Position numbers and translations under genes: made by a program. A stretch of DNA of 33,664 bases from an uncultured virus (IMG/VR IMGVR_UViG_3300028591_000145) (lineage: Duplodnaviria; Heunggongvirae; Uroviricota; Caudoviricetes): the IMG/VR virus record IMGVR_UViG_3300028591_000145; one strand, 5' to 3'. Positions within the stretch are counted from its first letter, which is position 1. Each line of letters begins with the position of its first letter. This document shows positions 1,548-33,308 of the stretch, in pieces. The notes under the pieces are model-generated. The model was not told the DNA's origin, made no database searches, and saw nothing but the letters and a program-made list of their open reading frames with translations.

Positions 1548-1574
1548 ATCTAATCTCCGTCAAAATAAAATAAA

Positions 1575-1661
1575 TGGGTGAACGTGGAATCGAACCACGG
1601 GTGTTTCTCATGTAACAGATTTACAGTCTGCCGTAACTCAACCAACAGTTACCTTTCACCC
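1575..1661 (-). tRNA. tRNA-Tyr(GUA), no encoded CCA
   Basis: Acceptor GGGTGAA/TTCACCC; anticodon arm GCAGA-CTGTAAA-TCTGT; long variable arm; T arm CGTGG-TTCGATT-CCACG. Confidence 0.92.
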
Positions 1662-1664
1662 ATA

Positions 1665-2317: not shown

Positions 2318-2669
2318 ATATTGCTCATAGGTGCGTAAAGGAGTTAAACCTACGAGCAAGTACGACACACAGGGATTTGCGCCCCATTTACATCCACATC
2401 TATGCAGTGCGCCCTAATCAGCAGAGGTAGGGTTGTGGCATTTTTTGTCGCGGTCTGCACATGTCATTCTGCAAAATGCTACTCGCACTTAGCATTCGCA
2501 TAAACTCCGTCAAGTTTTGAAACTCTTAACAGGACTCCTCGTCCTAACGGAGCGGAGAAATCTTCAATGTCAAAGGCAAAAAACAACCTCATCATGGAAG
2601 ATGCATCCTGCCCGTGGGCATGACCCCACGGTACATCCCTTTCGGATTACAGGCAAATCAAGGAGTATG

Positions 2670-7210: not shown

Positions 7211-7266
7211 TCCGCTTGACTCTGCATTTCCACGGGCTTGTCACCGTCCTCTGGCTGCATTAAGTT
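7211..7266 (-). ncRNA. Twister ribozyme (type P1), copy A
   Basis: CUUAAUGCAGCC-AGAGG-ACGG-UGACAAGC-CCGU-GGAAA-UGCA-GAGUC-AAG: UAA cleavage site, P2 UGCA/UGCA, P4 ACGG/CCGU, T1 GAC/GUC, T2 GC/GC. P1 is short. Confidence 0.85.
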
Positions 7267-7493: not shown

Positions 7494-7550
7494 TCCGCTT
7501 GCTCTGCATCTTCCCCTGCTTGCAACGGGCTTTCGGCTGCATTAAGCGGA
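7494..7550 (-). ncRNA. Twister ribozyme (type P1), copy B
   Basis: UCCGCUU-AA-UGCA-GCCGAAAG-CCCG-UUGCAAGC-AGGG-GAAGA-UGCA-GAGC-AAGCGGA: perfect P1, T1 GC/GC, one G-A mismatch in P4. Confidence 0.85.
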
Positions 7551-8412: not shown

Positions 8413-8940
8413 TTATGCTATCATTTCGTAAATATCGCCATTCTCTGTCTTGTAAAAACTACCTTCTATCATTATGTCGCGCCCATATGCTTCGAAATCG
8501 AAATACGGTTCGACATTTTCCGGAATGTCAATACAGCCGCATTCCTTAGCGTAATAATAACCTACTGCAAATTCATCACTCTCGAAGCCTTCAGGCGTTG
8601 TAACATAAACAACATCGTCTAAGTGTTCCCTGATTTCTTCGGATTCTGTATATCCAAAATATTTTAGAACTTCTACCTTTTCCGGAACGTCTTCGATGAT
8701 TTCAGCAAGGTGGTTAAGTTCTTCAAGATTGTCATACTCGCCGATTCTTAAACCCGGAACATCGGATTCATAATCCGTAATAAAATATTCTTCGTAATAG
8801 TTCCCGTTCTCGTCTGGCTCTTCGCTGATTCCGATCCGCTCAAAAACCGGGCTAAAATCATCACAGGGAAGTTCTACCCATTCCCCAATTAAAGCACCTT
8901 CGTTGTACTTTCCAAGATTCGTCAAATAAATTCTTAACAT
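8413..8940 (-). CDS. ardA: Antirestriction protein ArdA (DNA mimic, type I RM inhibitor)
   Basis: IYLTNLGKYNEGALIGEWVELP...YFITDYE...YFDFEAYGRD; highly acidic. Confidence 0.95.
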   Translation of the reverse strand: MLRIYLTNLGKYNEGALIGEWVELPCDDFSPVFERIGISEEPDENGNYYEEYFITDYESDVPGLRIGEYDNLEELNHLAEIIEDVPEKVEVLKYFGYTESEEIREHLDDVVYVTTPEGFESDEFAVGYYYAKECGCIDIPENVEPYFDFEAYGRDIMIEGSFYKTENGDIYEMIA

Positions 8941-9129
8941 GGTCTTATCTCCTTTTCATTGTAGTTTTCTGACTTTTTAAGTTATCAGTGTGCTGTGCTG
9001 CTGTTCTTTTGATGTACTCATATTAGCATAACGTGCCGTTATTCGTCAATGAAATATTCTTAAAAAACTGCACAAAAATAACGTGCCTTTATTGTGCAAT
9101 TTGTAACGTGCCGTTATTCTTCCGGGCAT

Positions 9130-9158
9130 AAAAAAAGAGCGGTTTCTTTTCCGCTCTT
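9130..9158 (-). terminator. Intrinsic terminator
   Basis: AAGAGCGG/CCGCTCTT hairpin plus U-run. Confidence 0.8.
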
Positions 9159-9177
9159 GTTCTTTCTATATAATGGT

Positions 9178-9444
9178 TTATATTTTTCCTTCTTTCTTTC
9201 TCTTGTCCAGTTCTATTTGTTTGTATTTTTCAAGTAAATCCTTATATCTGGCTTCACCCAGATCTGATATAATCGCTGCTGTTATTGCTCTCGCTGCATA
9301 ACCGCCGGGCTTTTCATCTAATACTTTTTCAATTAGCTGCGCCGTTCCTATAGGCACTCGCGCTACAATTCTGTCACGGTGCAATGCTTCATATTTTGCC
9401 GTTGCTTTCACTTGCCTTTTCATTTGATCATCTGTCAATGTCAT
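9178..9444 (-). CDS. Probable ribbon-helix-helix repressor
   Basis: KATAKYEALHRDRIVARVPIGTAQLIEK...YAARAI resembles the RHH protein at 6834. Start moved to ATG 9444 (AAGGTGGAG RBS). Flanked by operator repeats. Confidence 0.65.
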   Translation of the reverse strand: MTLTDDQMKRQVKATAKYEALHRDRIVARVPIGTAQLIEKVLDEKPGGYAARAITAAIISDLGEARYKDLLEKYKQIELDKRKKEGKI

Positions 9445-9744
9445 TTTCTCCACCTTCTTTCTGTATAATGACAGTTTCGTGAATAACATTGTATAACGTG
9501 CCGTGCATATCTGTCAATCGTGAAAAATTGCACAAATAACGTGCCGTATTTTTGTATATTTTAACGTGTCGTTATTCCTTGCTTTTTGGCTAACGTGCCG
9601 TTATAATGAGACTTGCAAGCGAACATTGAAAACAAATACAGATTTTTTTCGGGTGACTTGTTCCGCTTGGCCTGTGTCATTGCGTACCGGGTGCGGGGCT
9701 TGTACGGTGAAAAAGATCACGAAATAAAAGGGGAATGTATAAAA

Positions 9745-9885
9745 ATGTCAGAACAGAACAGAAACACGCTTAAATCCACAATTTACAATCTTTCAGACGG
9801 GGATGCGGCGTTATATGCCGCACTCGCATCCATGACAGATGAACAGCTAGAACAGATTTTGACAGATATTTGTTCTAAGCCGTAA
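9745..9885 (+). CDS. Small hypothetical protein (46 aa)
   Basis: AAAGGGG RBS; first ORF of the rightward early operon. Confidence 0.55.
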   Translation: MSEQNRNTLKSTIYNLSDGDAALYAALASMTDEQLEQILTDICSKP

Positions 9886-9956
9886 ATCCTTGCCCGTCAT
9901 GTAGGCAGAAACCTGAAAAAATCAGGTTTTCCGGGATCGTTCCCCGGCGGCGGCTT
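9877..9956 (+). ncRNA. tRNA-like cloverleaf (non-canonical)
   Basis: AAGCCGT/GCGGCTT; TGCC/GGCA; AAACCTGA/TCAGGTTT; CCGGG-ATCGTTC-CCCGG. Confidence 0.55.
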
Positions 9957-9998
9957 TCTGGTAACTGTAAACATCTTATAAAAGGGGGATACCATAAA

Positions 9999-10373
9999 AT
10001 GAGAATCAGCCACAATACACGTAATTTAGCTGTTGCCGCGTTCCGGGCTTTTGGTACGGATTCAGAACAGGCAGCAGAACAGGCAGCGGAAGAAGCGGAA
10101 AACGCTTTACAAGCAGATTATGAAATCCTGTATAATTTGCTCGTGTCTGGGCAGGTGGATTACTTCTACCATGAAAGTGAACCGTCAAAAATCGGTCGGT
10201 CGCTGGTAGAAGTCTGGACGAGATCGAGTAGGCAGGGTGTGTCTGTTCAAAGATCGACTTTTCTAAAAGTTCCCGGTGGAGAACTGGTAGCACTTTCGCA
10301 TCATAACATTATGACGTTTTCCGATATGGTGAAAGATTCCATTCCGGATAATGTCGATATCATAGCAGCATAA
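9999..10373 (+). CDS. Hypothetical protein
   Basis: 124 aa; AAGGGGG RBS. Confidence 0.75.
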   Translation: MRISHNTRNLAVAAFRAFGTDSEQAAEQAAEEAENALQADYEILYNLLVSGQVDYFYHESEPSKIGRSLVEVWTRSSRQGVSVQRSTFLKVPGGELVALSHHNIMTFSDMVKDSIPDNVDIIAA

Positions 10374-10384
10374 AGGGGGTTTTT

Positions 10385-10579
10385 ATGTATAAGTATTTTA
10401 CTATCTTGCGTCCAGTGTCAATCGGCACGTTCCCGAAAGAGGGGTTTGTCGATTTCGTGAACTTTGATAAAAGACGTTATGTTCCTGAAATCGACCATGA
10501 TGCGTGGGGATATCTTCTGTATAACCGGGAACTGTCAGAAAAAGAGATACACAATTATGATTTTATGCCTATGCCGTAA
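10385..10579 (+). CDS. DarA-related (defence-against-restriction) small domain protein
   Basis: YF..LRPVSIGTFPK...FD.R....AWGYLLYNRELS.KEI..YD pattern recalled from DarA C-terminal / polyvalent-protein domains. Confidence 0.6.
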   Translation: MYKYFTILRPVSIGTFPKEGFVDFVNFDKRRYVPEIDHDAWGYLLYNRELSEKEIHNYDFMPMP

Positions 10580-10647
10580 CACAAAAATCAGTGTTCCCGG
10601 TTGAAATATACCGGGGATATTCACACAAATAAAAATGGGGGTTTACT

Positions 10648-10902
10648 ATGTTTTCAAAAAAAGAGTTATACAACGCTTTAAAAAATGAGGGTGAGGTTAT
10701 TGTGTTGTCAAATGAACAGGAACCGGGTTACTTTTCCACAGTCTTTTGGTTCAGTGACCGGGTAAACGATAAAATATCATGCTTTTGTCGTTCAATGGGT
10801 ATATTACCACGTGATGAAATGAACATTGATAGCCTGTATGAGTTGCTTTTACGGCTCTTTGAAGAAGGATTTCATGTTTTACTACGTGGTATGGATCACT
10901 GA
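10648..10902 (+). CDS. Hypothetical protein
   Basis: 84 aa; GGGGG RBS. Confidence 0.7.
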   Translation: MFSKKELYNALKNEGEVIVLSNEQEPGYFSTVFWFSDRVNDKISCFCRSMGILPRDEMNIDSLYELLLRLFEEGFHVLLRGMDH

Positions 10903-10920
10903 ACAAAACAGGATTCTGTT

Positions 10921-10998
10921 TGTCAAGTCTGGATGCCGTGGTTATGCCCGGATGGACGCACTTGTATAAGTGTTCACGGTTCGATTCCGTGATTGACA
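10921..10998 (+). ncRNA. tRNA-like cloverleaf / pseudo-tRNA
   Basis: TGTCAA/TTGACA acceptor; TCTGG/CCGGA; GCACTT-GTAT-AAGTGT; perfect T arm CACGG-TTCGATT-CCGTG. Confidence 0.65.
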
Positions 10999-11034
10999 TT
11001 TCTGGAAATAATATAGAAGGGAGATAAAAATATT

Positions 11035-11283
11035 ATGACATATCACGATGATTGCATTGTCAGAAAAGTACCAAAGGAAATCCGCAAGCGCACACAGGAG
11101 AATATGGATAAGTATTGTCTTTGCTTATATGATGCATTTAATGAAGCAGTACGGCACTATAACAAGTGTAGTAAGGAACTGTGGGCGGCGTTTATGAAAT
11201 CCGATTATAGATTGTATATTCCATCCGCTTATAATCCTGAGTATCTGGATTTTAGCAAGTATCCACTAAAGTATAGTATTTAA
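11035..11283 (+). CDS. Hypothetical protein
   Basis: 82 aa; AAGGGAG RBS. Confidence 0.7.
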   Translation: MTYHDDCIVRKVPKEIRKRTQENMDKYCLCLYDAFNEAVRHYNKCSKELWAAFMKSDYRLYIPSAYNPEYLDFSKYPLKYSI

Positions 11284-11302
11284 GAAAGTGAGGACGTGAG
11301 AT

Positions 11303-11503
11303 ATGACAAGAGAACGAATTGAGGGCATTCTGTCTGATGCTGTAGCCAGTATTTTTAATGATGCAGGAGTAAACACAGAACAGGTTATTGATACATCTTT
11401 GTGGGCTGGAATTGATCTTGATTCAGCATTCATTTATCATGTTGACGTTCTGTATAAATACGTCAATGCGGCGATTGATGCGGAAAGTGAGGTAAGAACA
11501 TGA
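11303..11503 (+). CDS. Hypothetical acidic protein
   Basis: 66 aa; GTGAGG RBS. Confidence 0.7.
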   Translation: MTRERIEGILSDAVASIFNDAGVNTEQVIDTSLWAGIDLDSAFIYHVDVLYKYVNAAIDAESEVRT

Positions 11504-11646
11504 CTTATAAGCAGTTCACGGAAAAATTGAGCGCATACTTTTCACCGTCTGAAATCTGCATGATAGATAAATATTATACAGATGTTGCGGTGGATACGGG
11601 ATTATGCAGGTGGATCAATCAAAAATCCGGATTTGTTAATCCGTGA
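11500..11646 (+). CDS. Small hypothetical protein (48 aa)
   Basis: GAGGT RBS; ATGA overlap with the previous gene. Confidence 0.6.
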   Translation: MTYKQFTEKLSAYFSPSEICMIDKYYTDVAVDTGLCRWINQKSGFVNP

Positions 11647-11686
11647 TATTGCAACTGGTGTATTCTAAGGAAAGGGAGATTGAATC

Positions 11687-11851
11687 ATGGTAAAATGGGA
11701 TATATTGAGGCCGGGTGATGTAGTACAGGATATGAACGGGATACAGTTAACCGTGACCGTCTGCTATGAGGGGCATGTAGTTGCGGAGTGCCCGGGTGAT
11801 CTGGTGAGGATCAGAGAAAACAATCAGCATAATTACAGGGTTATTAAATAA
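11687..11851 (+). CDS. Small hypothetical protein (54 aa)
   Basis: MVKWDILRPGDVVQD...; AAGGGAG RBS. Confidence 0.6.
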   Translation: MVKWDILRPGDVVQDMNGIQLTVTVCYEGHVVAECPGDLVRIRENNQHNYRVIK

Positions 11852-11861
11852 CTGTTGGCAT

Positions 11862-12143
11862 AAATTCGAGTCCGGGTATCCGGGGAAAGTGAGGGGGAAA
11901 ATGAGATATTTTGTTGTTAATGATTCAATGATTCCGCTATATGGACAACCTGAAAATGGATACACTAAAATGCAAGCCATTAGTAGAGCGCAAAGAGAAG
12001 TAGAGCAGTGCGCTAAAATGTTTAATATTTCATATTTTGAATGTGCATCATGGTTTCATATTCTTGATAGTAAAATGCATTACTGCGTTGAACTAGATAC
12101 AGCTATATAAAATTCGAGTCCGGGTATCCGGGGAAAGTGAGGG
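11862..12143 (+). repeat. 34-bp perfect direct repeat flanking one gene
   Basis: AAATTCGAGTCCGGGTATCCGGGGAAAGTGAGGG at 11862-11895 and 12110-12143; 16-bp partial copy at 14273-14288. Confidence 0.9.
11901..12110 (+). CDS. Hypothetical protein
   Basis: ATG follows the GAGGGGG RBS within the repeat. Confidence 0.7.
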   Translation: MRYFVVNDSMIPLYGQPENGYTKMQAISRAQREVEQCAKMFNISYFECASWFHILDSKMHYCVELDTAI

Positions 12144-12150
12144 CTATATA

Positions 12151-12372
12151 ATGCAGATAATGACGGGAACAAAAAGAGAAATAGCAATTCAGACATGGGA
12201 AGAACAGATTGAAAAGTATATGAAGCGTTTGAATGATTCTATGGAATGCTTCAGGAGATTTCATGAAGCTGATGATCTCACGCACATGTTAGAAGATATT
12301 GAGAAGTTGACCGAAAATGTTACATATTGTCGCAAGGCTATTGAACACATGGACAATCTGGGGATTAAATAA
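12151..12372 (+). CDS. Hypothetical helical protein
   Basis: 73 aa; RBS within the repeat. Confidence 0.7.
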   Translation: MQIMTGTKREIAIQTWEEQIEKYMKRLNDSMECFRRFHEADDLTHMLEDIEKLTENVTYCRKAIEHMDNLGIK

Positions 12373-12403
12373 TAATCCCCATTATAAATATGAGGGCTAC
12401 ACC

Positions 12404-12571
12404 ATGAAATGTAAAGATTGTGTATACTGTAAAGAATACTATCACAGCTACTATAATATCACAGCAAGGTGTACATGGTTCTGTAGAGATACAGCTTCTA
12501 ATAATGAAGGCTGCGACTATATTAAACCGAAACACAACAATACAGAAGAAAAAAAGAGGGTTACTAGATGA
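12404..12571 (+). CDS. Small Cys-rich (CxxCxxC) protein
   Basis: MKCKDCVYC...; GAGG RBS. Confidence 0.6.
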   Translation: MKCKDCVYCKEYYHSYYNITARCTWFCRDTASNNEGCDYIKPKHNNTEEKKRVTR

Positions 12572-12816
12572 GAACAAAGATAATCGAGGTAAATGTAAGC
12601 ACAGGCTATAAAGACTGCAATCATTCCGGGCATTATGCCGTATTATACGATGACACAGCTATAGCAAATCCATACATGGTGTACAGCTATTGGACTGGGT
12701 TTTCTGATCACGGAATTACAAAACATAGGACGCAACTACAGAAATACGGGGATTACGCAAGCGCAATGTATTTTCTGTATCAGGTGACCACAAATCAAAT
12801 CAGCATAGGAAAGTGA
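12568..12816 (+). CDS. Hypothetical protein
   Basis: 82 aa; translationally coupled to the previous ORF. Confidence 0.7.
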   Translation: MRTKIIEVNVSTGYKDCNHSGHYAVLYDDTAIANPYMVYSYWTGFSDHGITKHRTQLQKYGDYASAMYFLYQVTTNQISIGK

Positions 12817-12827
12817 GGGCTACCGGG

Positions 12828-13100
12828 ATGAAAAATACATACACAATCAGCTTAACAGGCATTGACGCTTATATCTGGGATGTACAGAAATACATCATGG
12901 ATAAGGTAGGAGTTGACGCAAGCAGCAGACTCATATATCCTTTAAAGCGGTATATCAACACAGGACGGGCAAGCAATGCGTTTCTGCGGAAGTTGTTCGA
13001 CATTGCACCATATCGAATAGGACGCATTCTAATGAAATCCGGTTCCGATGATGATGTGATCCGCTCAATTAAAATGGCTATTAAATTTGAGACTTACTAA
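12828..13100 (+). CDS. Hypothetical protein
   Basis: ATG after a GAGG RBS. Confidence 0.7.
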   Translation: MKNTYTISLTGIDAYIWDVQKYIMDKVGVDASSRLIYPLKRYINTGRASNAFLRKLFDIAPYRIGRILMKSGSDDDVIRSIKMAIKFETY

Positions 13101-13134
13101 AACCGATCCCTACCCGGTGAAAGAAGGTGATAAC

Positions 13135-13335
13135 ATGAAGGTGAAAACATTTCTGTCCGGTAACGGCAAGCCCTATACCATAACATTCTGGGATTCATGC
13201 CGTGAATTTAAATTGAACGACTTAGAAATGGTTAACTGGCATACCTTTGCAGAGGGTGATGATCTGTACGGTTTCAATCCGGAACCTATAGGAACAGTTG
13301 TCAAGATAACAGGTAATAAGATATTGATTGCATAG
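13135..13335 (+). CDS. Hypothetical protein
   Basis: AAGGTGA RBS before ATG 13135. Confidence 0.65.
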   Translation: MKVKTFLSGNGKPYTITFWDSCREFKLNDLEMVNWHTFAEGDDLYGFNPEPIGTVVKITGNKILIA

Positions 13336-13351
13336 AAGTGAGGGCTGCACC

Positions 13352-13687
13352 ATGATAGTTGAAACAAAATACCGAATATATGAAAATGTATTCCTGAGAG
13401 TTGAACGATATATGGCTGACAACAGCTTATGTATACTACTGTATAACCGGGATTATGCCGTAATAGCTAAATTAACCACCTGTCTGGATGACAAGAACCT
13501 GAAGGATAGCGAAGCGTATATTGATACGAATAACTGCCCGTGGGCTATTGATTTCATCCGCGAATACAATTTAGGTGTACTGACGGGAAAGAAAAGGGTT
13601 TCCGGATACTGTACATATCCGGTTGTCAGATTCAATATGGATGAAATCGAAAAACACGTGAAGCATTCGAGGGCTACCATTGATTAA
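13352..13687 (+). CDS. DUF4313-like protein
   Basis: AYIDTNNCPWAIDFI..YNLG..TG....SGYCTYPVVRF pattern. Confidence 0.75.
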   Translation: MIVETKYRIYENVFLRVERYMADNSLCILLYNRDYAVIAKLTTCLDDKNLKDSEAYIDTNNCPWAIDFIREYNLGVLTGKKRVSGYCTYPVVRFNMDEIEKHVKHSRATID

Positions 13688-13764
13688 ATCCCTAGACATG
13701 ATATAATAATAAAAGAAACTGTAAGATAGCATTTTTGCCGATTTTATCTAAGAAGGAGAAATCT

Positions 13765-13965
13765 ATGAGTGATTTAAGTGTTTTAAGGACAATAGCAACA
13801 CACATTAACCCGAATACTGGAATGACGGTTCCTGATAGAACAATCTTGTTTCTGGACAGCCGCATCGAAGAAGATGCAGACAACTACTATGCTGTCAGAG
13901 CATGGCATACTGACGGGAATGATCGGAAGATATACCCTAAGTCAGAATGGACTGCTGAATATTGA
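13765..13965 (+). CDS. Hypothetical protein
   Basis: AAGGAG RBS before ATG 13765. Confidence 0.7.
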   Translation: MSDLSVLRTIATHINPNTGMTVPDRTILFLDSRIEEDADNYYAVRAWHTDGNDRKIYPKSEWTAEY

Positions 13966-14027
13966 AGGCTACCCGGTTGATCTAAAATCTCTAAAATACT
14001 CTAAAAAATTCTAAAAAGGAGTGTATT

Positions 14028-14258
14028 ATGACTAGCACAGAATATAGCAACGCTATTCATGGTATCCTTGCAAGTGGCAGAGGTTATCAAGCAATCATTG
14101 ATTTGACGGAATACTTAAAAACTCTAAACGACAATGTAGATGCTGCCGTAAGAGAATACAAGTCCGAGCGACAAGCAGTCCGTAAAATCTGTAATAATCC
14201 TAACGTGACACAGAAAGAAAAACTGAGTGCCGTTATGAGCATGATGGGTGAAAAATAA
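14028..14258 (+). CDS. Hypothetical protein
   Basis: 76 aa; AAGGAG RBS. Confidence 0.7.
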   Translation: MTSTEYSNAIHGILASGRGYQAIIDLTEYLKTLNDNVDAAVREYKSERQAVRKICNNPNVTQKEKLSAVMSMMGEK

Positions 14259-14302
14259 ATTGCGCTCGTATTTTCGAGTCCGGGTATCAAAAGGAGAAAA
14301 AT

Positions 14303-14662
14303 ATGGGATACGAAAGCAGACTTTATGTTGTTGAAAAAGGCAGCGTCAAAGGCTTAAGTGGTAAGATTTATGGAATGCACGTAGCTGCATTTGAAATGGG
14401 ATGCGTATATGAGATGGTAGAGAAGATTAAGAAATATCCGCATACCGATACATTCTTCTTCGCTGATGACGGAAACACTGAAGTCACAAGCGATGCATAC
14501 GGAGAACCGTTAACTGAAATTCCCGTAAAGGATATGGCAAACATTATCCGTGAATTATCAAAACATGATGTATACAGGAGATATAAACCTGTACTGGCAT
14601 TCCTTGACACAATAGATGAATCAGAATGGCATAATATAGTTGTGTTACATTATGGACACTGA
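14303..14662 (+). CDS. Hypothetical phage protein
   Basis: 119 aa MGYESRLYVV...VLHYGH; AAGGAG RBS. Confidence 0.75.
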   Translation: MGYESRLYVVEKGSVKGLSGKIYGMHVAAFEMGCVYEMVEKIKKYPHTDTFFFADDGNTEVTSDAYGEPLTEIPVKDMANIIRELSKHDVYRRYKPVLAFLDTIDESEWHNIVVLHYGH

Positions 14663-17034: not shown

Positions 17035-17529
17035 TCAGCTTATTTTTACAGCATATTGATTCGATGAAGCAAGTTTAACACCTAACGTACTGTCATATAC
17101 TTCTTCTGAATCTGGAACATACCGTCCGAATTTAACAATGATATTCTTATACTTTCTCAGGATATTTATATATGTCTGTATTTCATTTGAGTTATACCCT
17201 GTATAGATAACAATATCATCATCACGCTGGTATTTAATACGGAGTTCCGCGATAAATGAAAGCAATTCATCGAATGAATCAAATGGCTCTAAACCTTGAC
17301 AGACTATTGCGTGAGATATTTTATTGTTTATATACCGCTCGCACAGTTTATCTATATTTACCTCAATATCGGGCTGTTTTGCAATACTGGAATTCTGGCA
17401 TACTGGCTGACCACAATCATGTTCACACTTGAATGTACAGGTTGGAAAAACAAGTGTCATTGACGGACGCTTGTAGTTTACAAAGTCCTCGTCTATTATG
17501 CCTTTGAGAGTTATTGTATATTTTCCCAT
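17035..17529 (-). CDS. nrdG: Anaerobic ribonucleotide reductase activating enzyme (radical SAM)
   Basis: CTFKCEHDC...CQN, GLEPF, IYTGY, KFGRY, SSNQY; adjacent to nrdD. Confidence 0.88.
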   Translation of the reverse strand: MGKYTITLKGIIDEDFVNYKRPSMTLVFPTCTFKCEHDCGQPVCQNSSIAKQPDIEVNIDKLCERYINNKISHAIVCQGLEPFDSFDELLSFIAELRIKYQRDDDIVIYTGYNSNEIQTYINILRKYKNIIVKFGRYVPDSEEVYDSTLGVKLASSNQYAVKIS

Positions 17530-20486
17530 TGTCTTAACTTATATTCTTCTCTTCTCTTATCTGACCATGAACTGATTCGTGTCGCAAATCCAACTATCCT
17601 TGTATACTCGCAATCTACAGGTTCTCCGCACTCAGGACATATCTCACCATAAAATGCATGGTTATGTTTGCAAGCCTGAATTCTTGTGTTGAATGCAAAG
17701 TATGTAACACCATGATCTGCAATATAATTAACCATTTCCCACGCTTTATCAAAAGTGTCAAACGGCGAGTCGATATTTACATGGAGAATGCTGCCACCAT
17801 TACAATATCCGTCAAATTCAGAAGCAATCCTAATTCTTTCCTGTAATGTTGTTTTAATCCCGATTGGAATAAATTGATTACCATATAGCGGAAGGTCATA
17901 AATATCTGCATCTGGATAGAAATATTTGTCTTTCTGCATCAATTTATCTGCTGCTGATTCACCCGGTATTTGTTCAGTATTGATTTGATAATCACAATGA
18001 TTCTTTTCAATAAATTCGTCTGCGGCTTCACGCATTGTTTCAAAAATTTTCTTACCGAACTTAGATGCGTTTTCTGTATAATATATATTTCCGAATTCAT
18101 CTTTTTTAGTGTATCCGAGATGTTTCATTGATTCATAAATTCCAATAAACCCACATGTATTATACAAATATTGGAAATCAATCAATCCGTGTGTAAAATT
18201 AGGAAGAATACCTTTTTCAACGTTGCGTTTAATTATATGCCTAACAGCATGAAGCGCACACAAGATAATCGTTACGCGATGTTTTAGTTCTTTTAAATAT
18301 TCTTCTTCAGAATTCGTATCTAAAGCAATCCTTGCAAGATTTATAGTGTTTACTTTAACTGAACCAACTTTAAGGGCTGTGCCACCTATACTGTTAAAAT
18401 AGCCAAGATTTTTAATATCTGACTTTAACCTGCAATTATGTGTAATAACGCCGTTCGGAAGTGTAAAGTATGGATCATTTTCATCTTTCATTTCAAAGCA
18501 ATACACATAATCTTCATCGGTTTCGTATTTCTCGATATTGATAATTTTAAAGAATGTTGAATTATTCCGTTTAATATATACATCCTTTTGATTTCTTCTA
18601 TTACACGGTTCATACCATCTAATGCAGTACACAGGATAGTTTCTATTAAACGACTGCCCTCTTATAATTACTTCACCATCACCAGTTCTATCGGAAACAT
18701 TTATAATTGTGTTAATCCCAAGTGATGTGAATAACGCTTCAATATCACCAACCAATTTTTCCGAAGTCGTATAAATTCTATTTGAATTTCCACCGTCAGT
18801 TAAATAATATCCATCTATAATGCCTTTTCTAAACTCAACTGACTGAAGAATACAATCGAGATTTAATCTCTTTTCAAAACAATATTTACCAGATACAAAT
18901 TTTCTAATAAAGGCTGTGACTTTATTGCTTCGCAAACTTAACGGATAAACATTGTTGTATGTTTTCCCTAATGTGAATGTTTTTAATTCACCTATCTGTT
19001 GACATGCGATTTTTAGCAAGTCTTTTGACGCATTATATTTTTCTTCATTTAATGACAAATCAATCTGTGTGGAATATATAGATTCTTCATGACACATAGA
19101 ACCATCACCAAGATACATACCAATAAGAAGACCTTGTTCATATGTTAAAGAATCATCTACTTCTTTTACGGAATATAGTATACTGTTATTGAACATTAAA
19201 TAATCATTTAATGTCAAATCAGCAGTTACTACTTCACCGCGCTGAGTCATATTTATATGGTTATCTGTAACTAATATCTCTTTATTATTTGATGTTACAA
19301 TTCTATATAAAGGTCGTTTAGGCAATCTTATTACTTTCCCCTTTACCCAACTACCATTATTAAAGATTGTGAAATTGCGTTTAAAACCGTCATAAGGGGC
19401 TTCATATAGTTCTTTTAATGACATAAAATTCACACCGTCAGACGATTTTGATAATGTCATTTGTGAACCATCAAAACAACAATTAGATAATGACGTAACA
19501 GAAGAATCCACAAAAATGTTTGAATCATTCCATTGCATATTATGCTCAATAGCCCATCTTGCAAATTCTTCATCAACAAATTTACCATCTTTTCGTAAAA
19601 GAGATATTGTATTCACCGGAAATGTGAACATGTTAACTTTACGAATTTCAGCCATTACCTGCATATACCATTTTTGGAAATTGATAATGTCTTCCTCGTA
19701 GTCAATCATGAAACTTCCATCAGGGAAAACGCCGCCACCGAATAACGCTTCGAAATATTCATGATCAAATATAGAACTATTTACAAAGGCGGATTGGCTC
19801 CCGTCGCGTGCATACGGTTGATTTTCTGCAAAAATTAGACGTTGAAAATTCTGCTTTGCATAATATTCTTCATTATGACTTGTCTTAATTCCCATATAGT
19901 CATTGTCAACATCTTGTTTCCAGAAATAATACATATACGGAATTAAATTCGGCAAGCCAACTGCGCCGCTTGTTCTATTACATGCAAAACTAATAAACTC
20001 TTTTACGAAATCTACAAATGTAGTAAGATGTTTTGCTATCTGCGGATTCTGACCGTCAATAAAATACAACCCCTTTTCCGCTAAATCTGTTAAATCATAC
20101 GCAAAACAATATGATTTCATTGATGATGAAGGTGGATCATGCAAGTAACTTTCACCCACCCAATCCATTTCTAGCCATTCATTAGCAATGTCAATCCCGA
20201 ACATCTTGCTAATTTCATAGTGTATCTTGTTATATGCGAGTAATTTTGAATGTGGCTTTGGCATTTCTCTTTCAAGAGTAACTACATCTTTATTTGATAC
20301 ATTAGAACTAGAGTCTATGCTTGCGTCTGCCACAACATCCTTGTCTATGAAATTGTCGATAAAATCTGTGTAGCTAAGTTGCCCCTCACTGAATCCGTTC
20401 AGTCTGGCAATCCCTTCACCGTACTTTTTCTGCAATTCATTGTATTTTTCGGTAAAGGCTTCTTTCAAGTTAATTGTTATTTCCAT
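17511..20486 (-). CDS. nrdD: Class III anaerobic ribonucleoside-triphosphate reductase, intein-containing
   Basis: YLHD, YCF, SGAVG, FTFPV, SNC|CRL, GSVKVNTINLARIA, PGES, CPECG, YTRIVGF glycyl-radical loop. Confidence 0.95.
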   Translation of the reverse strand: MEITINLKEAFTEKYNELQKKYGEGIARLNGFSEGQLSYTDFIDNFIDKDVVADASIDSSSNVSNKDVVTLEREMPKPHSKLLAYNKIHYEISKMFGIDIANEWLEMDWVGESYLHDPPSSSMKSYCFAYDLTDLAEKGLYFIDGQNPQIAKHLTTFVDFVKEFISFACNRTSGAVGLPNLIPYMYYFWKQDVDNDYMGIKTSHNEEYYAKQNFQRLIFAENQPYARDGSQSAFVNSSIFDHEYFEALFGGGVFPDGSFMIDYEEDIINFQKWYMQVMAEIRKVNMFTFPVNTISLLRKDGKFVDEEFARWAIEHNMQWNDSNIFVDSSVTSLSNCCFDGSQMTLSKSSDGVNFMSLKELYEAPYDGFKRNFTIFNNGSWVKGKVIRLPKRPLYRIVTSNNKEILVTDNHINMTQRGEVVTADLTLNDYLMFNNSILYSVKEVDDSLTYEQGLLIGMYLGDGSMCHEESIYSTQIDLSLNEEKYNASKDLLKIACQQIGELKTFTLGKTYNNVYPLSLRSNKVTAFIRKFVSGKYCFEKRLNLDCILQSVEFRKGIIDGYYLTDGGNSNRIYTTSEKLVGDIEALFTSLGINTIINVSDRTGDGEVIIRGQSFNRNYPVYCIRWYEPCNRRNQKDVYIKRNNSTFFKIINIEKYETDEDYVYCFEMKDENDPYFTLPNGVITHNCRLKSDIKNLGYFNSIGGTALKVGSVKVNTINLARIALDTNSEEEYLKELKHRVTIILCALHAVRHIIKRNVEKGILPNFTHGLIDFQYLYNTCGFIGIYESMKHLGYTKKDEFGNIYYTENASKFGKKIFETMREAADEFIEKNHCDYQINTEQIPGESAADKLMQKDKYFYPDADIYDLPLYGNQFIPIGIKTTLQERIRIASEFDGYCNGGSILHVNIDSPFDTFDKAWEMVNYIADHGVTYFAFNTRIQACKHNHAFYGEICPECGEPVDCEYTRIVGFATRISSWSDKRREEYKLRQWENIQ
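18435..19478 (-). mobile_element. Intein (348 aa) with LAGLIDADG homing endonuclease
   Basis: Starts CFDGSQ; block B VTDNH; LIGMYLGDG and IIDGYYLTDG motifs; ends VYCFE...NGVITHN followed by extein Cys. Confidence 0.95.
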
Positions 20487-31979: not shown

Positions 31980-32654
31980 TCAATGTTTTTCATTAAATGT
32001 TTCTTCTTTCCGCTGCATATATTGCTCTTTTGAAATTTCTATAAAACCATCTTTAGTTTCCGTAAAATATCTGTCAATATTTTCTTGTTTTCCTTCTGGT
32101 GTAATCATATATAAATATGCTTTATGATCAAATTCTCCTATCGCATTTGGGTGTAGATAATAAAAATCTTCTGTATATACCTTATATGGTTTATTATGGG
32201 GTAAATATGGCATAGTTATAGGGTATTTTTCATAAACTAAATTATTTGCTTTGAAATCATGCCAACATGTATTATTTTTTACATCTGTGCAAATGACATA
32301 GTCATTATCGGTATATTTTATATTATTATCTTTATCAATTTCCTTAAACAGCGAACTCATTCTATTGTTTTGATATACTTTCGTTCCATCCAAATCTTTT
32401 GTATAAGAATATTCCCACACATCAGACGTATCTTCTATCGGTGTAAGACATTTTCCATCTATAAGGCGATTTAATATATTTTTCGTAAACGCAATACTCA
32501 TTCCGCTATGATTATCTTCACAAAGGCTTTTAAATGCTTTTAATGCTGAATCATAGCAAGCGCATCCATAATCCCACTCATCTTCTTGATTGTCTACACG
32601 TTCTATATTTTTAGCTATTTCAATTTCTCTTCTAGCCCATTCATACATTCTCAT
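31980..32654 (-). CDS. Conserved hypothetical phage protein
   Basis: 224 aa; HSGMS...LTPIED motif; GGAG RBS. Confidence 0.75.
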   Translation of the reverse strand: MRMYEWARREIEIAKNIERVDNQEDEWDYGCACYDSALKAFKSLCEDNHSGMSIAFTKNILNRLIDGKCLTPIEDTSDVWEYSYTKDLDGTKVYQNNRMSSLFKEIDKDNNIKYTDNDYVICTDVKNNTCWHDFKANNLVYEKYPITMPYLPHNKPYKVYTEDFYYLHPNAIGEFDHKAYLYMITPEGKQENIDRYFTETKDGFIEISKEQYMQRKEETFNEKH

Positions 32655-32708
32655 AATTTAATATCTCCATAACTGGTTATGTTCATCTATATCTATTAAA
32701 ACTTATGT

Positions 32709-33308
32709 TTATTGATATGACCATTCATATTCATTTTTTATAGGCCATTCAAATCCAAAATCAGTACGCTTGATTTTACACATCGGTTCATTGTTTAACC
32801 AAAATACAATACCTTCGATTCCGTTAGAATTTAGATATTCTTTAATTCCATTAAATGTACGTTCAGGATGAATTATGTCATTCCCGTGAGGAATCAATAC
32901 ATCATATGCCATATCATATGGATTTCCATTAAAGTGTTTCCCAACTGCTTCATATGTGCCTTTTGTTAAAACTATATGACAATATCTTCGCGTAAAATCG
33001 TATGCTGCCCAAAACCATTTATCCGCAGAATTGTCTCTGCCACACTTTACCCAATGAGGATGATGACCTGTTATCGGGTCTGGATCGCAACAAGGTATTG
33101 CACCTTCTGGTGGCTTTTTACCTCTTTTTGCATCATATCGCCTATATAATTCTCCATTTATAATCGCACAACAAGCACCATCCCATTTTATTGTTGCATC
33201 TCCTTTACCTTCCAGTACCCATTCCATACCGGGATAGACTTCATCTGTTATGCCAACGATTTTATGATCGTTATATATTCGTTGGAACAATGTCGGTATC
33301 TTCTTCAT
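32709..33308 (-). CDS. Putative ATP-dependent RNA ligase (DUF5565 / RLIG1-like)
   Basis: MKKIPTLF, motif I KWDG, motif III YEAVG, motif IV EGIVF, motif V KIKR.DFG. Confidence 0.75.
   Translation of the reverse strand: MKKIPTLFQRIYNDHKIVGITDEVYPGMEWVLEGKGDATIKWDGACCAIINGELYRRYDAKRGKKPPEGAIPCCDPDPITGHHPHWVKCGRDNSADKWFWAAYDFTRRYCHIVLTKGTYEAVGKHFNGNPYDMAYDVLIPHGNDIIHPERTFNGIKEYLNSNGIEGIVFWLNNEPMCKIKRTDFGFEWPIKNEYEWSYQ

Follow-up and report, generated by a model that had tools for sequence, protein, structure and literature searches.

Introduction

The t-elements of plant mitochondria are non-canonical cloverleaves that were found through the motif GGTTCRANYCC (Forner et al. 2007, PMC1920247), and their edges match messenger RNA (mRNA) ends that RNase P and RNase Z generate, while the excised element gains non-templated C/A. 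With regard to bacteria, a second source (PMC4919922) describes RNase P as cutting substrates other than transfer RNA (tRNA), among them polycistronic mRNAs and the precursors of phage regulatory RNAs, and it presents the mascRNA/MALAT1 and MEN-beta systems, in which RNase P and RNase Z cleave a tRNA-like structure within a long transcript and thereby yield a small tRNA-shaped RNA along with the processed long RNA. In this study, two tRNA-like folds were investigated in a DNA stretch of 33,664 nucleotides (nt) from an uncultured virus of the Caudoviricetes (IMG/VR record IMGVR_UViG_3300028591_000145), the whole of which is called the window here. Both lie in its rightward operon, E1 at 9877-9956 and E2 at 10921-10998, and an original prediction from the letters alone had taken them together as non-decoding tRNA-like cloverleaves that punctuate this operon. 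The reading we favour, tentatively and at somewhat less than an even chance, is that the two differ: by analogy, E2 would be a t-element-like, tRNA-derived module cut by RNase P and RNase Z, and E1 a cis-acting structured leader or intercistronic element.

Comparison with the described systems shows both likeness and difference. E2 resembles the t-elements (PMC1920247) as a cloverleaf that would lie in a longer transcript beside mRNA coding regions, with no usable anticodon and no encoded CCA, and it carries their motif GGTTCRANYCC within a non-canonical cloverleaf (GGTTCGATTCC, 10978-10988), which E1 does not. The likeness may extend, by analogy, to an RNase P cut on the 5' side and an RNase Z cut on the 3' side of E2 that would free a small tRNA-like RNA. 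Unlike the t-elements, E2 belongs to a phage of a ruminant-gut bacterium and not to an organelle, and it has an extra hairpin in its D loop; its companion E1 is without the T-arm motif. The mascRNA/MALAT1 and MEN-beta structures differ from E2 in that they belong to eukaryotic nuclear long non-coding RNAs (lncRNAs) and have no sequence relation to it. In the literature covered, with subscription papers outside that coverage, tRNA-like punctuation of phage protein-coding operons was not found; it is documented for organelles and for some eukaryotic lncRNAs.

Among phages, the precursor of the C4 antisense RNA of P1 and P7 is said, in work of Hartmann and co-workers from 1995, to be an RNase P substrate in the phage immunity operon. 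This too is a phage early or immunity transcript in which a non-tRNA RNase P substrate gives a small RNA and a downstream mRNA, but C4 is an antisense regulator of downstream genes, and no target complementarity is established for E1 or E2. The stable RNAs C and D of phage T4 and the YrlA-type mimics, YrlA being reportedly a bacterial or phage Y-RNA-like tRNA mimic (Chen and co-workers, in 2014), resemble E2 in being phage- or prophage-borne, tRNA-shaped and non-decoding. The T4 RNAs lie in a tRNA cluster and not between protein genes and, with respect to the Y-RNA-like comparison, no Ro/Rsr gene was seen among the window's protein family assignments.

Fold and anatomy of E2

RNAfold gives E2 as a four-way junction of -26.1 kcal/mol, and the fold is kept with 20 nt of flanking sequence; the perfect T arm and the 4-nt loop at the anticodon position that the original prediction had described are both seen in it. 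The whole element, which we regard as a non-decoding tRNA-derived module (10921..10999, plus strand) on the basis of its fold, a structural descriptor, shuffles and its recurrence in X9 and X8 contigs, opens and closes with an acceptor-like helix of 6 base pairs (bp), TGTCAA/TTGACA (10921-10926 / 10993-10998), and T10999, in the discriminator position, follows the acceptor strand. Inside this helix, on the same strand, stand a D-like helix GTCT/GGAC that encloses an additional 6-bp hairpin (10927-10957), an 'anticodon' hairpin with a 6-bp stem and a GTAT tetraloop (10958-10973), and the T arm (T)CACGG/TTCGATT/CCGTG(A) at 10974-10992, which is supported by the fold and by an exact motif match; a variable region is absent. 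No -10 element stands at a usable distance from the TTGACA at 10993-10998, and a promoter within E1 or E2 was rejected.

The upper half of E2 is that of a tRNA. Its 6-bp acceptor-like helix and 6-bp T stem directly adjoin each other and make 12 stacked pairs, and the acceptor and T stems of a tRNA likewise make 12 pairs (7+5). RNase P and RNase Z recognise the T arm and the acceptor geometry, which is intact in E2. The sequence GGTTCGATTCC has three exact matches in the window, namely E2 and both real tRNAs, and the 20-nt T arm of E2 is identical at 20/20 positions to the T arms of annotated tRNA-Phe in several GenBank phages, a match of descriptive value (E 0.8). A 5-bp T stem, a TTCRANY loop and a 7-nt 3' acceptor strand directly after the stem are together present in E2 and not in E1. 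E2 has a U at position -1 and a U-rich 3' trailer, and the phage's own tRNA genes have similar T-rich trailers. It is intergenic, a small hairpin (10906-10920) stands immediately upstream of it, and a ribosome-binding site follows it both in the window and in the X9 context. The original prediction had also pointed to the lack of an encoded CCA in both elements, and this is so; the missing CCA does not discriminate, however, because the phage's tRNA-Tyr and tRNA-Met genes are also without it.

Two further sequences of IMG/VR phages recall parts of E2. A 'tRNA-Ile(AAT)' at 2499-2571 (minus strand) of locus L020 shares with E2 the acceptor strand TGTCAAG and the D stem GTCT/GGAC; in the minimum free energy (MFE) fold its anticodon arm carries a 6-nt loop, and it may also be non-decoding. 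Judged by sequence, this likeness fits an origin of E2 from a real tRNA; homology does not follow from it. In locus L005, from the phage with the closest ArdA (64% identity), inspection by eye of 11232-11280 (plus strand) showed a stop codon and then a T-arm-like hairpin, GGTTCAAATCC, which is closed by GGGCAG/CTGCCC and has a real tRNA-Gln about 125 nt downstream; by its sequence it may be another non-decoding tRNA-like element.

Fold and anatomy of E1

E1 is likewise given by RNAfold as a four-way junction, of -31.2 kcal/mol (z -3.28; 1/200 shuffles equally good), which is kept with 20 nt of flank, and its overlap with a stop codon, its ATCGTTC loop and its extended arm with a loop of five A are seen in the fold as the original prediction had them. 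All of its parts lie on the plus strand and come from the RNAfold structure. The closing helix AAGCCGT/GCGGCTT has 7 bp (9877-9883 / 9950-9956), and its 5' strand consists of the last codons of a 46-amino-acid (aa) open reading frame (ORF), ending on the first base of the TAA stop (9883-9885), the remainder of which lies in the linker. A hairpin of 4 bp with a 9-nt loop devoid of GG follows (9891-9907), then a 9-bp hairpin with an AAAAA loop that is terminator-like in having an A-tract, a stem and U4 (9908-9930), and finally the hairpin CCGGG/ATCGTTC/CCCGG with a 5-bp stem (9931-9947), whose CCCC complements the GGGGG in the following ribosome-binding site. E1, with 4 T only, goes uncalled in a consensus terminator scan. 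An analogy of the A5-loop hairpin with lambda nut/boxB was dropped, as the likeness is one of shape.

Gene callers, RNA families and tests against chance

The original prediction had expected a pseudo call or no call from tRNA finders, and ARAGORN at default settings over the window called tRNA-Tyr and tRNA-Met and neither E1 nor E2. At the 80% threshold E2 was reported as an 85-nt 'tRNA-???' with a 2-base anticodon, an alternative fold that we rejected as forced, and E1 was not reported; E1 was called only at 60%, alongside obvious junk. Neither element has the 7-nt loop on a 5-bp stem of a decoding tRNA, again as predicted, for the corresponding arm has 9 bp and 5 nt (AAAAA) in E1 and 6 bp and 4 nt (GTAT) in E2. 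Rfam at gathering thresholds found ROOL and tRNA-Met in the window, and its tRNA model RF00005 matched neither the region 9500-11400 nor the isolated elements at E <= 10. The 17-nt T hairpin of E2 aligns to cyano_tmRNA with 7.5 bits, and beyond this hairpin E2 matches neither a transfer-messenger RNA (tmRNA) nor a Y-RNA family model; a tmRNA is expected to carry a G3:U70 pair, E2 has U3-A70, and no Y-RNA family was among the Rfam matches to the E1/E2 region. RAGATH-36 was rejected for E2, as the alignment (8.7 bits) is truncated by the slice used and covers only the T hairpin. Nothing relevant in Rfam aligned to isolated E1, and a weak SAM-III-type alignment (15 bits, E 8.6) fell in its region. 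The ribozyme models twister, twister-sister, hammerhead, pistol, hatchet and hairpin gave no match at E <= 10 over 9500-11400 or on isolated E1 and E2.

A strict descriptor of the tRNA top half (5-bp Watson-Crick T stem, TTCRANY loop and an immediate 7-nt strand pairing at >=6/7 positions with a 5' strand, 60-100 nt in total) was run on the window and on 2000 dinucleotide-shuffled windows. Three loci were obtained in the window, namely tRNA-Tyr, tRNA-Met and E2, and any match at all was obtained in 17/2000 shuffles; a match that also folds as an end-closed four-way junction in the MFE structure was obtained in 0/2000. A looser descriptor that allows G-U pairs is unspecific, with 0.37 loci per shuffle. 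Again, an unbiased scan for four-way junctions of 65-95 nt with at least 6 Watson-Crick closing pairs and an MFE <= -25 kcal/mol found exactly four loci in the window, tRNA-Met, tRNA-Tyr, E1 and E2, against a mean of 0.28 in 39 shuffles; at <= -30, the class of E1, 2/39 shuffles have at least one locus. E2 is therefore clearly non-random and tRNA-derived, and E1 is borderline against chance on structure alone and tRNA-like in topology only.

Recurrence of the elements in related phages

The comparative data consist of summary tables for contigs from four ruminant-gut runs that match 9600-11300 at >=80% likeness. An X9 contig of 503 nt contains 10922-11001 with one difference, has unrelated sequence on both sides, and continues downstream into a ribosome-binding site and a start codon. 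An X8 contig joins at 10920 from yet another upstream sequence, X6, X8 and X9 contigs with a homologue of the 84-aa ORF upstream of E2 depart after 10913 into unrelated sequence without E2, and an X2 contig covers gene, E2 and gene (10633-11162) with 10 differences. In X6 and X8, contigs over the bin 10911-10967 add up to 2-3 times the depth of the bins beside it. As a sequence of about 80 nt that recurs with one mismatch between unrelated flanks, E2 therefore acts as a self-contained module and is conserved as such; judged by these contigs, it has sharp borders and is portable among mosaic phages.

Over E1, the summed depth in relatives is highest at 9885-9998, and several contigs of the region switch partner downstream at 9972 or 9999 and upstream at 9778 or 9798. 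Among 40 of the 255 differences, those listed, position 9887 in the E1 linker is the only one between 9853 and 10006, and many fall in the flanking ORFs. The leader of the operon (9646-9727, plus strand) has the highest summed depth of the stretch in X8 (138.6), with contigs that join at 9646 from differing sequences, and its fold is no better than that of shuffles (z -0.4).

Searches of public collections gave no second case. Blastn of 9500-11400 against GenBank phages returned nothing, and isolated E1 and E2 gave, at E <= 10, only T-arm-length or chance matches there. In IMG/VR an exact 24-mer and 26-mer and a purine/pyrimidine-degenerate E2 pattern each had 0 matches; a gapped pattern of acceptor and T arm had 2 (L020 and L021), which are other phage tRNA-type genes and were rejected as E2 homologues. 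The same gapped pattern had 0 matches in GTDB genomes, as did an E1 23-mer. An E2 19-mer had 4 matches in JGI metagenomes, which were discarded as chance and unrelated on inspection; no tRNA was called by ARAGORN at the match sites, and the sole one among these loci lies in L002, downstream of the match. With proteins as anchors in IMG/VR, the 124-aa and 84-aa neighbours of E2 gave no locus, 1 locus was reached through the DarA_C protein (39% identity), and ArdA gave 14 loci with synteny confined to ArdA itself. Single-sequence covariance models of E1 and E2 had no credible match over the window and 14 loci; we attribute an E1-like alignment in L005 (15.8 bits, E 0.19) to chance, since by our own estimate that amount of sequence should contain the 15/16 shared motif about 0.3 times. 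The 33.7-kb window has E2 in a single copy.

Genomic setting

The phage was found in ruminant-gut metagenomes, parts of the stretch being present in at least 14 studies; one run contains every sampled word and may be its source, and goat and bovine gut runs share 12-25% of the words. Small plus-strand ORFs form a block from about 9745 to 14662, of which E1 and E2 fill the two longest intergenic gaps, 113 nt (9886-9998) and 132 nt (10903-11034). The block begins with the 46-aa ORF (9745..9885, plus strand, ORF call), whose last codons and stop lie in the closing helix and linker of E1 and for which no family was found among Pfam or PHROG. E2 stands between an 84-aa ORF (10648..10902, plus strand, ORF call) and an 82-aa ORF (11035..11283, plus strand), whose ribosome-binding site lies about 17 nt past E2. 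A probable rightward early promoter (TTGCTT, 17 nt, TATAAT; 9579-9607, plus strand) was read by eye; it was missed by the consensus promoter scan because its -35 fits at only 3/6 positions. It is overlapped by the operator-like repeat TAACGTGCCGTTAT and sits among sites of that type. The divergent region 9028-9610, between a leftward 103-aa ORF (9178-9489) and the rightward operon, has at least 6 copies of such a site and resembles a phage repressor's operator array. Further along the operon, a perfect 34-nt direct repeat (11862-11895 and 12110-12143, plus strand), a hairpin CCGGG-TAT-CCGGG and then a ribosome-binding site, stands ahead of two successive small ORFs and looks like a repeated intercistronic cassette.

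With respect to the rest of the window, ArdA is encoded at 8413-8940 on the minus strand and a DarA_C-domain protein at 10385-10579. Other encoded proteins are an intein-containing NrdD with its activase, the DnaN clamp, ThyX, Tad3 and an RNA-ligase-1-like protein. The NrdD gene (17511-20486, minus strand) has an intein with a LAGLIDADG domain (Pfam Intein_splicing, LAGLIDADG_3), and the Tad3-type Thoeris inhibitor adjoins the RNA-ligase-1-like protein at 31980-33308 (minus strand), an arrangement that points to a cluster of counter-defence and RNA-repair genes at the right end. The window also encodes a ROOL RNA and two tRNA genes. The tRNA-Tyr(GTA) called by ARAGORN (1574-1662, minus strand) is unusual in its 89 nt, its 6-bp D stem and its variable region, which has about 14 nt and seems to be unpaired; Rfam matches it to tRNA-Sec only (32.7 bits, under the gathering score) and not to tRNA, and the 3' end of the ROOL RNA (1653-2235) adjoins it or overlaps with it. 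As for the twisters that the original prediction had placed in the left arm, a whole-window search found two paralogous twister-P1-like sequences, at 7214-7266 (minus strand, 40.8 bits, E 8e-6) and 7496-7548 (minus strand, 38.6 bits, E 4e-5); their core nucleotides are aligned, but both score under the gathering score of 67.2. Each has one optional stem shrunk to a short loop, and they lie in an ORF-poor, strongly AT-skewed part of the leftward arm.

Proposed mechanism

On the reading we favour, E2 would be a tRNA that has lost decoding, with the anticodon arm cut down to a tetraloop hairpin, the D loop grown by a hairpin, and the T arm retained coaxially with the acceptor-like helix. It would be transcribed within the rightward early polycistron, and we infer that this is a single RNA. 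Host RNase P would then cut the 5' edge of E2 at 10920|10921, and RNase Z would cut past the discriminator, after T10999, in the manner of CCA-less-type 3' processing. These cuts would part the upstream from the downstream cistron and free a tRNA-shaped RNA of about 79 nt, for which any role is conjectural; the upstream mRNA would then end in the hairpin 10906-10920, and the downstream mRNA would start about 17 nt ahead of its ribosome-binding site. By analogy, such punctuation is plausible for E2, and E2 itself is real and probably functional.

The same mechanism is unsupported for E1, and E1 as a tRNA mimic is doubtful. The robust parts of E1 would be its A5-loop hairpin and its GC hairpin, and a role in cis is probable, be it in partial termination, in RNA stability, or in coupling translation to the next gene or ribosome-binding site. 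The idea of a non-decoding tRNA-like element between the genes of the polycistron holds for E2, which has its T-arm and acceptor geometry intact and recurs elsewhere as a conserved unit, but is weak for E1, which has no T- or D-loop signature, a 2-nt spacer, and a closing helix that lies partly in coding sequence and is not maintained in some relatives.

Discussion

Several points weigh against the reading proposed here. The MFE of E2 is modest on its own (z -1.80, with 8/200 shuffles equally good), only 2/6 of its acceptor pairs are G-C, and isolated E2 aligns in Rfam by its T hairpin and nothing beyond. Pair probabilities were computed for E1, E2 and the real tRNAs with 0, 50, 150 and 300 nt of flank, and in that order the mean for the acceptor helix of E2 is 0.87, 0.18, 0.06 and 0.07 and that for the closing helix of E1 is 0.91, 0.76, 0.00 and 0.01. 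The acceptor stems of the real tRNAs hold 0.92-0.96 at 150-300 nt of flank, although tRNA-Met falls to 0.18 at 50 nt. The T arm of E2 (10974-10992) keeps 0.94-0.97 and the A5 hairpin of E1 (9908-9930) 0.93-0.95 in all flank contexts. The flanks are coding and would be covered by ribosomes, and the fold is computed without tertiary contacts, yet the modelled loss of the helices remains a real weakness. Moreover, the near-identity of the E2 copies could reflect recent exchange and not selection, and no homologue of E1 or E2 was obtained as sequence from IMG/VR, JGI metagenomes, GTDB genomes or GenBank phages.

E1 adds its own difficulties. Its linker after the closing helix has 7 nt where a tRNA has 2, two unpaired nt separate its T-like stem from the closing strand, its D-like loop has no GG, and its T-like loop ATCGTTC has A and T at the places where a T loop carries T54 and A58. 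Because linker, loops, A5 arm and spacer deviate in this way, its likeness to tRNA is topological only. Some relatives also have a 1-nt deletion at 9876 together with a 1-nt insertion after 9881, a pair that keeps the frame and the stop yet bulges the closing helix, with no compensation at 9950-9956 among the indels listed.

Many of these points would be expected if E2 were a decaying tRNA pseudogene in a spacer and E1 a chance fold of ordinary intercistronic hairpins, neither having a cloverleaf function. Neither anticodon arm is usable, neither element is recognised by the Rfam tRNA model, E1 is borderline against shuffles and in some relatives has an uncompensated change in its closing helix, long-context folding abolishes the closing helices of both, and searches of four public collections gave no homologues. 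We nevertheless consider this explanation unlikely, as neutral decay would not be expected to leave a sharply bounded 80-nt E2 with one mismatch between unrelated flanks in at least three contexts, nor to keep all four of its helices and a perfect T arm; again, E1 and the leader show the highest depth and, among the differences listed, the fewest majority differences in relatives.

Another explanation, in which the product counts for more than the cut and which we hold to be improbable, is that the released E2 is a stable tRNA-shaped RNA that titrates, as sponge or decoy, a host factor with the acceptor and T arm as its recognition site, for example a defence toxin modifying the tRNA 3' end, the CCA-adding enzyme, or RNase P/Z. 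The upper tRNA half of E2 is intact, E2 shifts between contexts as an independent, gene-like module, and the phage encodes counter-defence and RNA-repair genes (ArdA, the DarA_C-domain protein, Tad3 and the RNA-ligase-1-like protein). As E2 has no anticodon loop, such a role is limited to toxins or factors that read the acceptor and T arm, and anticodon nucleases are excluded as targets. A consensus scan shows no dedicated promoter or terminator around E2, and there is no consistently adjacent partner gene, because the flanks differ between contexts.

Of similarly low probability is the explanation that E1 and E2 alike act in cis as mRNA structures and have nothing to do with tRNA enzymes, with E1 as a leaky terminator or attenuator that also affects the next ribosome-binding site, and E2 as a 3' or 5' stabiliser of a cistron. 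For E1 the case is made by its central hairpin (A-tract, stem, loop, stem, U4), by its place about 300 nt past the likely early promoter and after the 46-codon ORF whose stop lies in the closing helix, and by the possible pairing of its CCCC with the GGGGG of the next ribosome-binding site, though it is uncalled by the consensus terminator scan and has 4 T only. The hairpins 9908-9930 and 10974-10992, one in each element, are retained at a probability >= 0.93 in every context, but the exact tRNA T arm that abuts an acceptor-like helix in E2 would be left unexplained. Finally, that E2 is a DNA-level mobile or recombinogenic element shuffling early genes among related phages is very improbable: its borders are sharp in different contexts (10920/10922 and 11001), it has a 6-bp terminal inverted repeat (TGTCAA/TTGACA) and TTCTG flanks it on both sides in the window, but that TTCTG repeat is absent from the other contexts, no recombinase is adjacent by Pfam or PHROG assignment, the window holds no second copy, and an exact tRNA T arm with two further internal hairpins would be unexpected.

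Implications for phage biology

If E2 were merely a relic, the finding would be an ordinary one. If E2 is cut by the host's tRNA-processing enzymes, phages would split early operon transcripts by tRNA-shaped punctuation. A bolder extension, to which we give only a slim chance, is that ruminant-gut phages circulate E2 as a portable cassette between early genes, where excision by RNase P and RNase Z would segment the polycistron, as twisters may in the opposite arm, and the CCA-tailed RNA would soak up a defence enzyme that attacks tRNA acceptor ends; viruses of bacteria would then have their own counterpart of tRNA punctuation, put to an additional use against defence. If the punctuation reading of E2 is true, it would account for the tRNA-like sequences, rejected by gene finders, that recur in phage genomes, and would offer a way into the expression of mosaic early regions.

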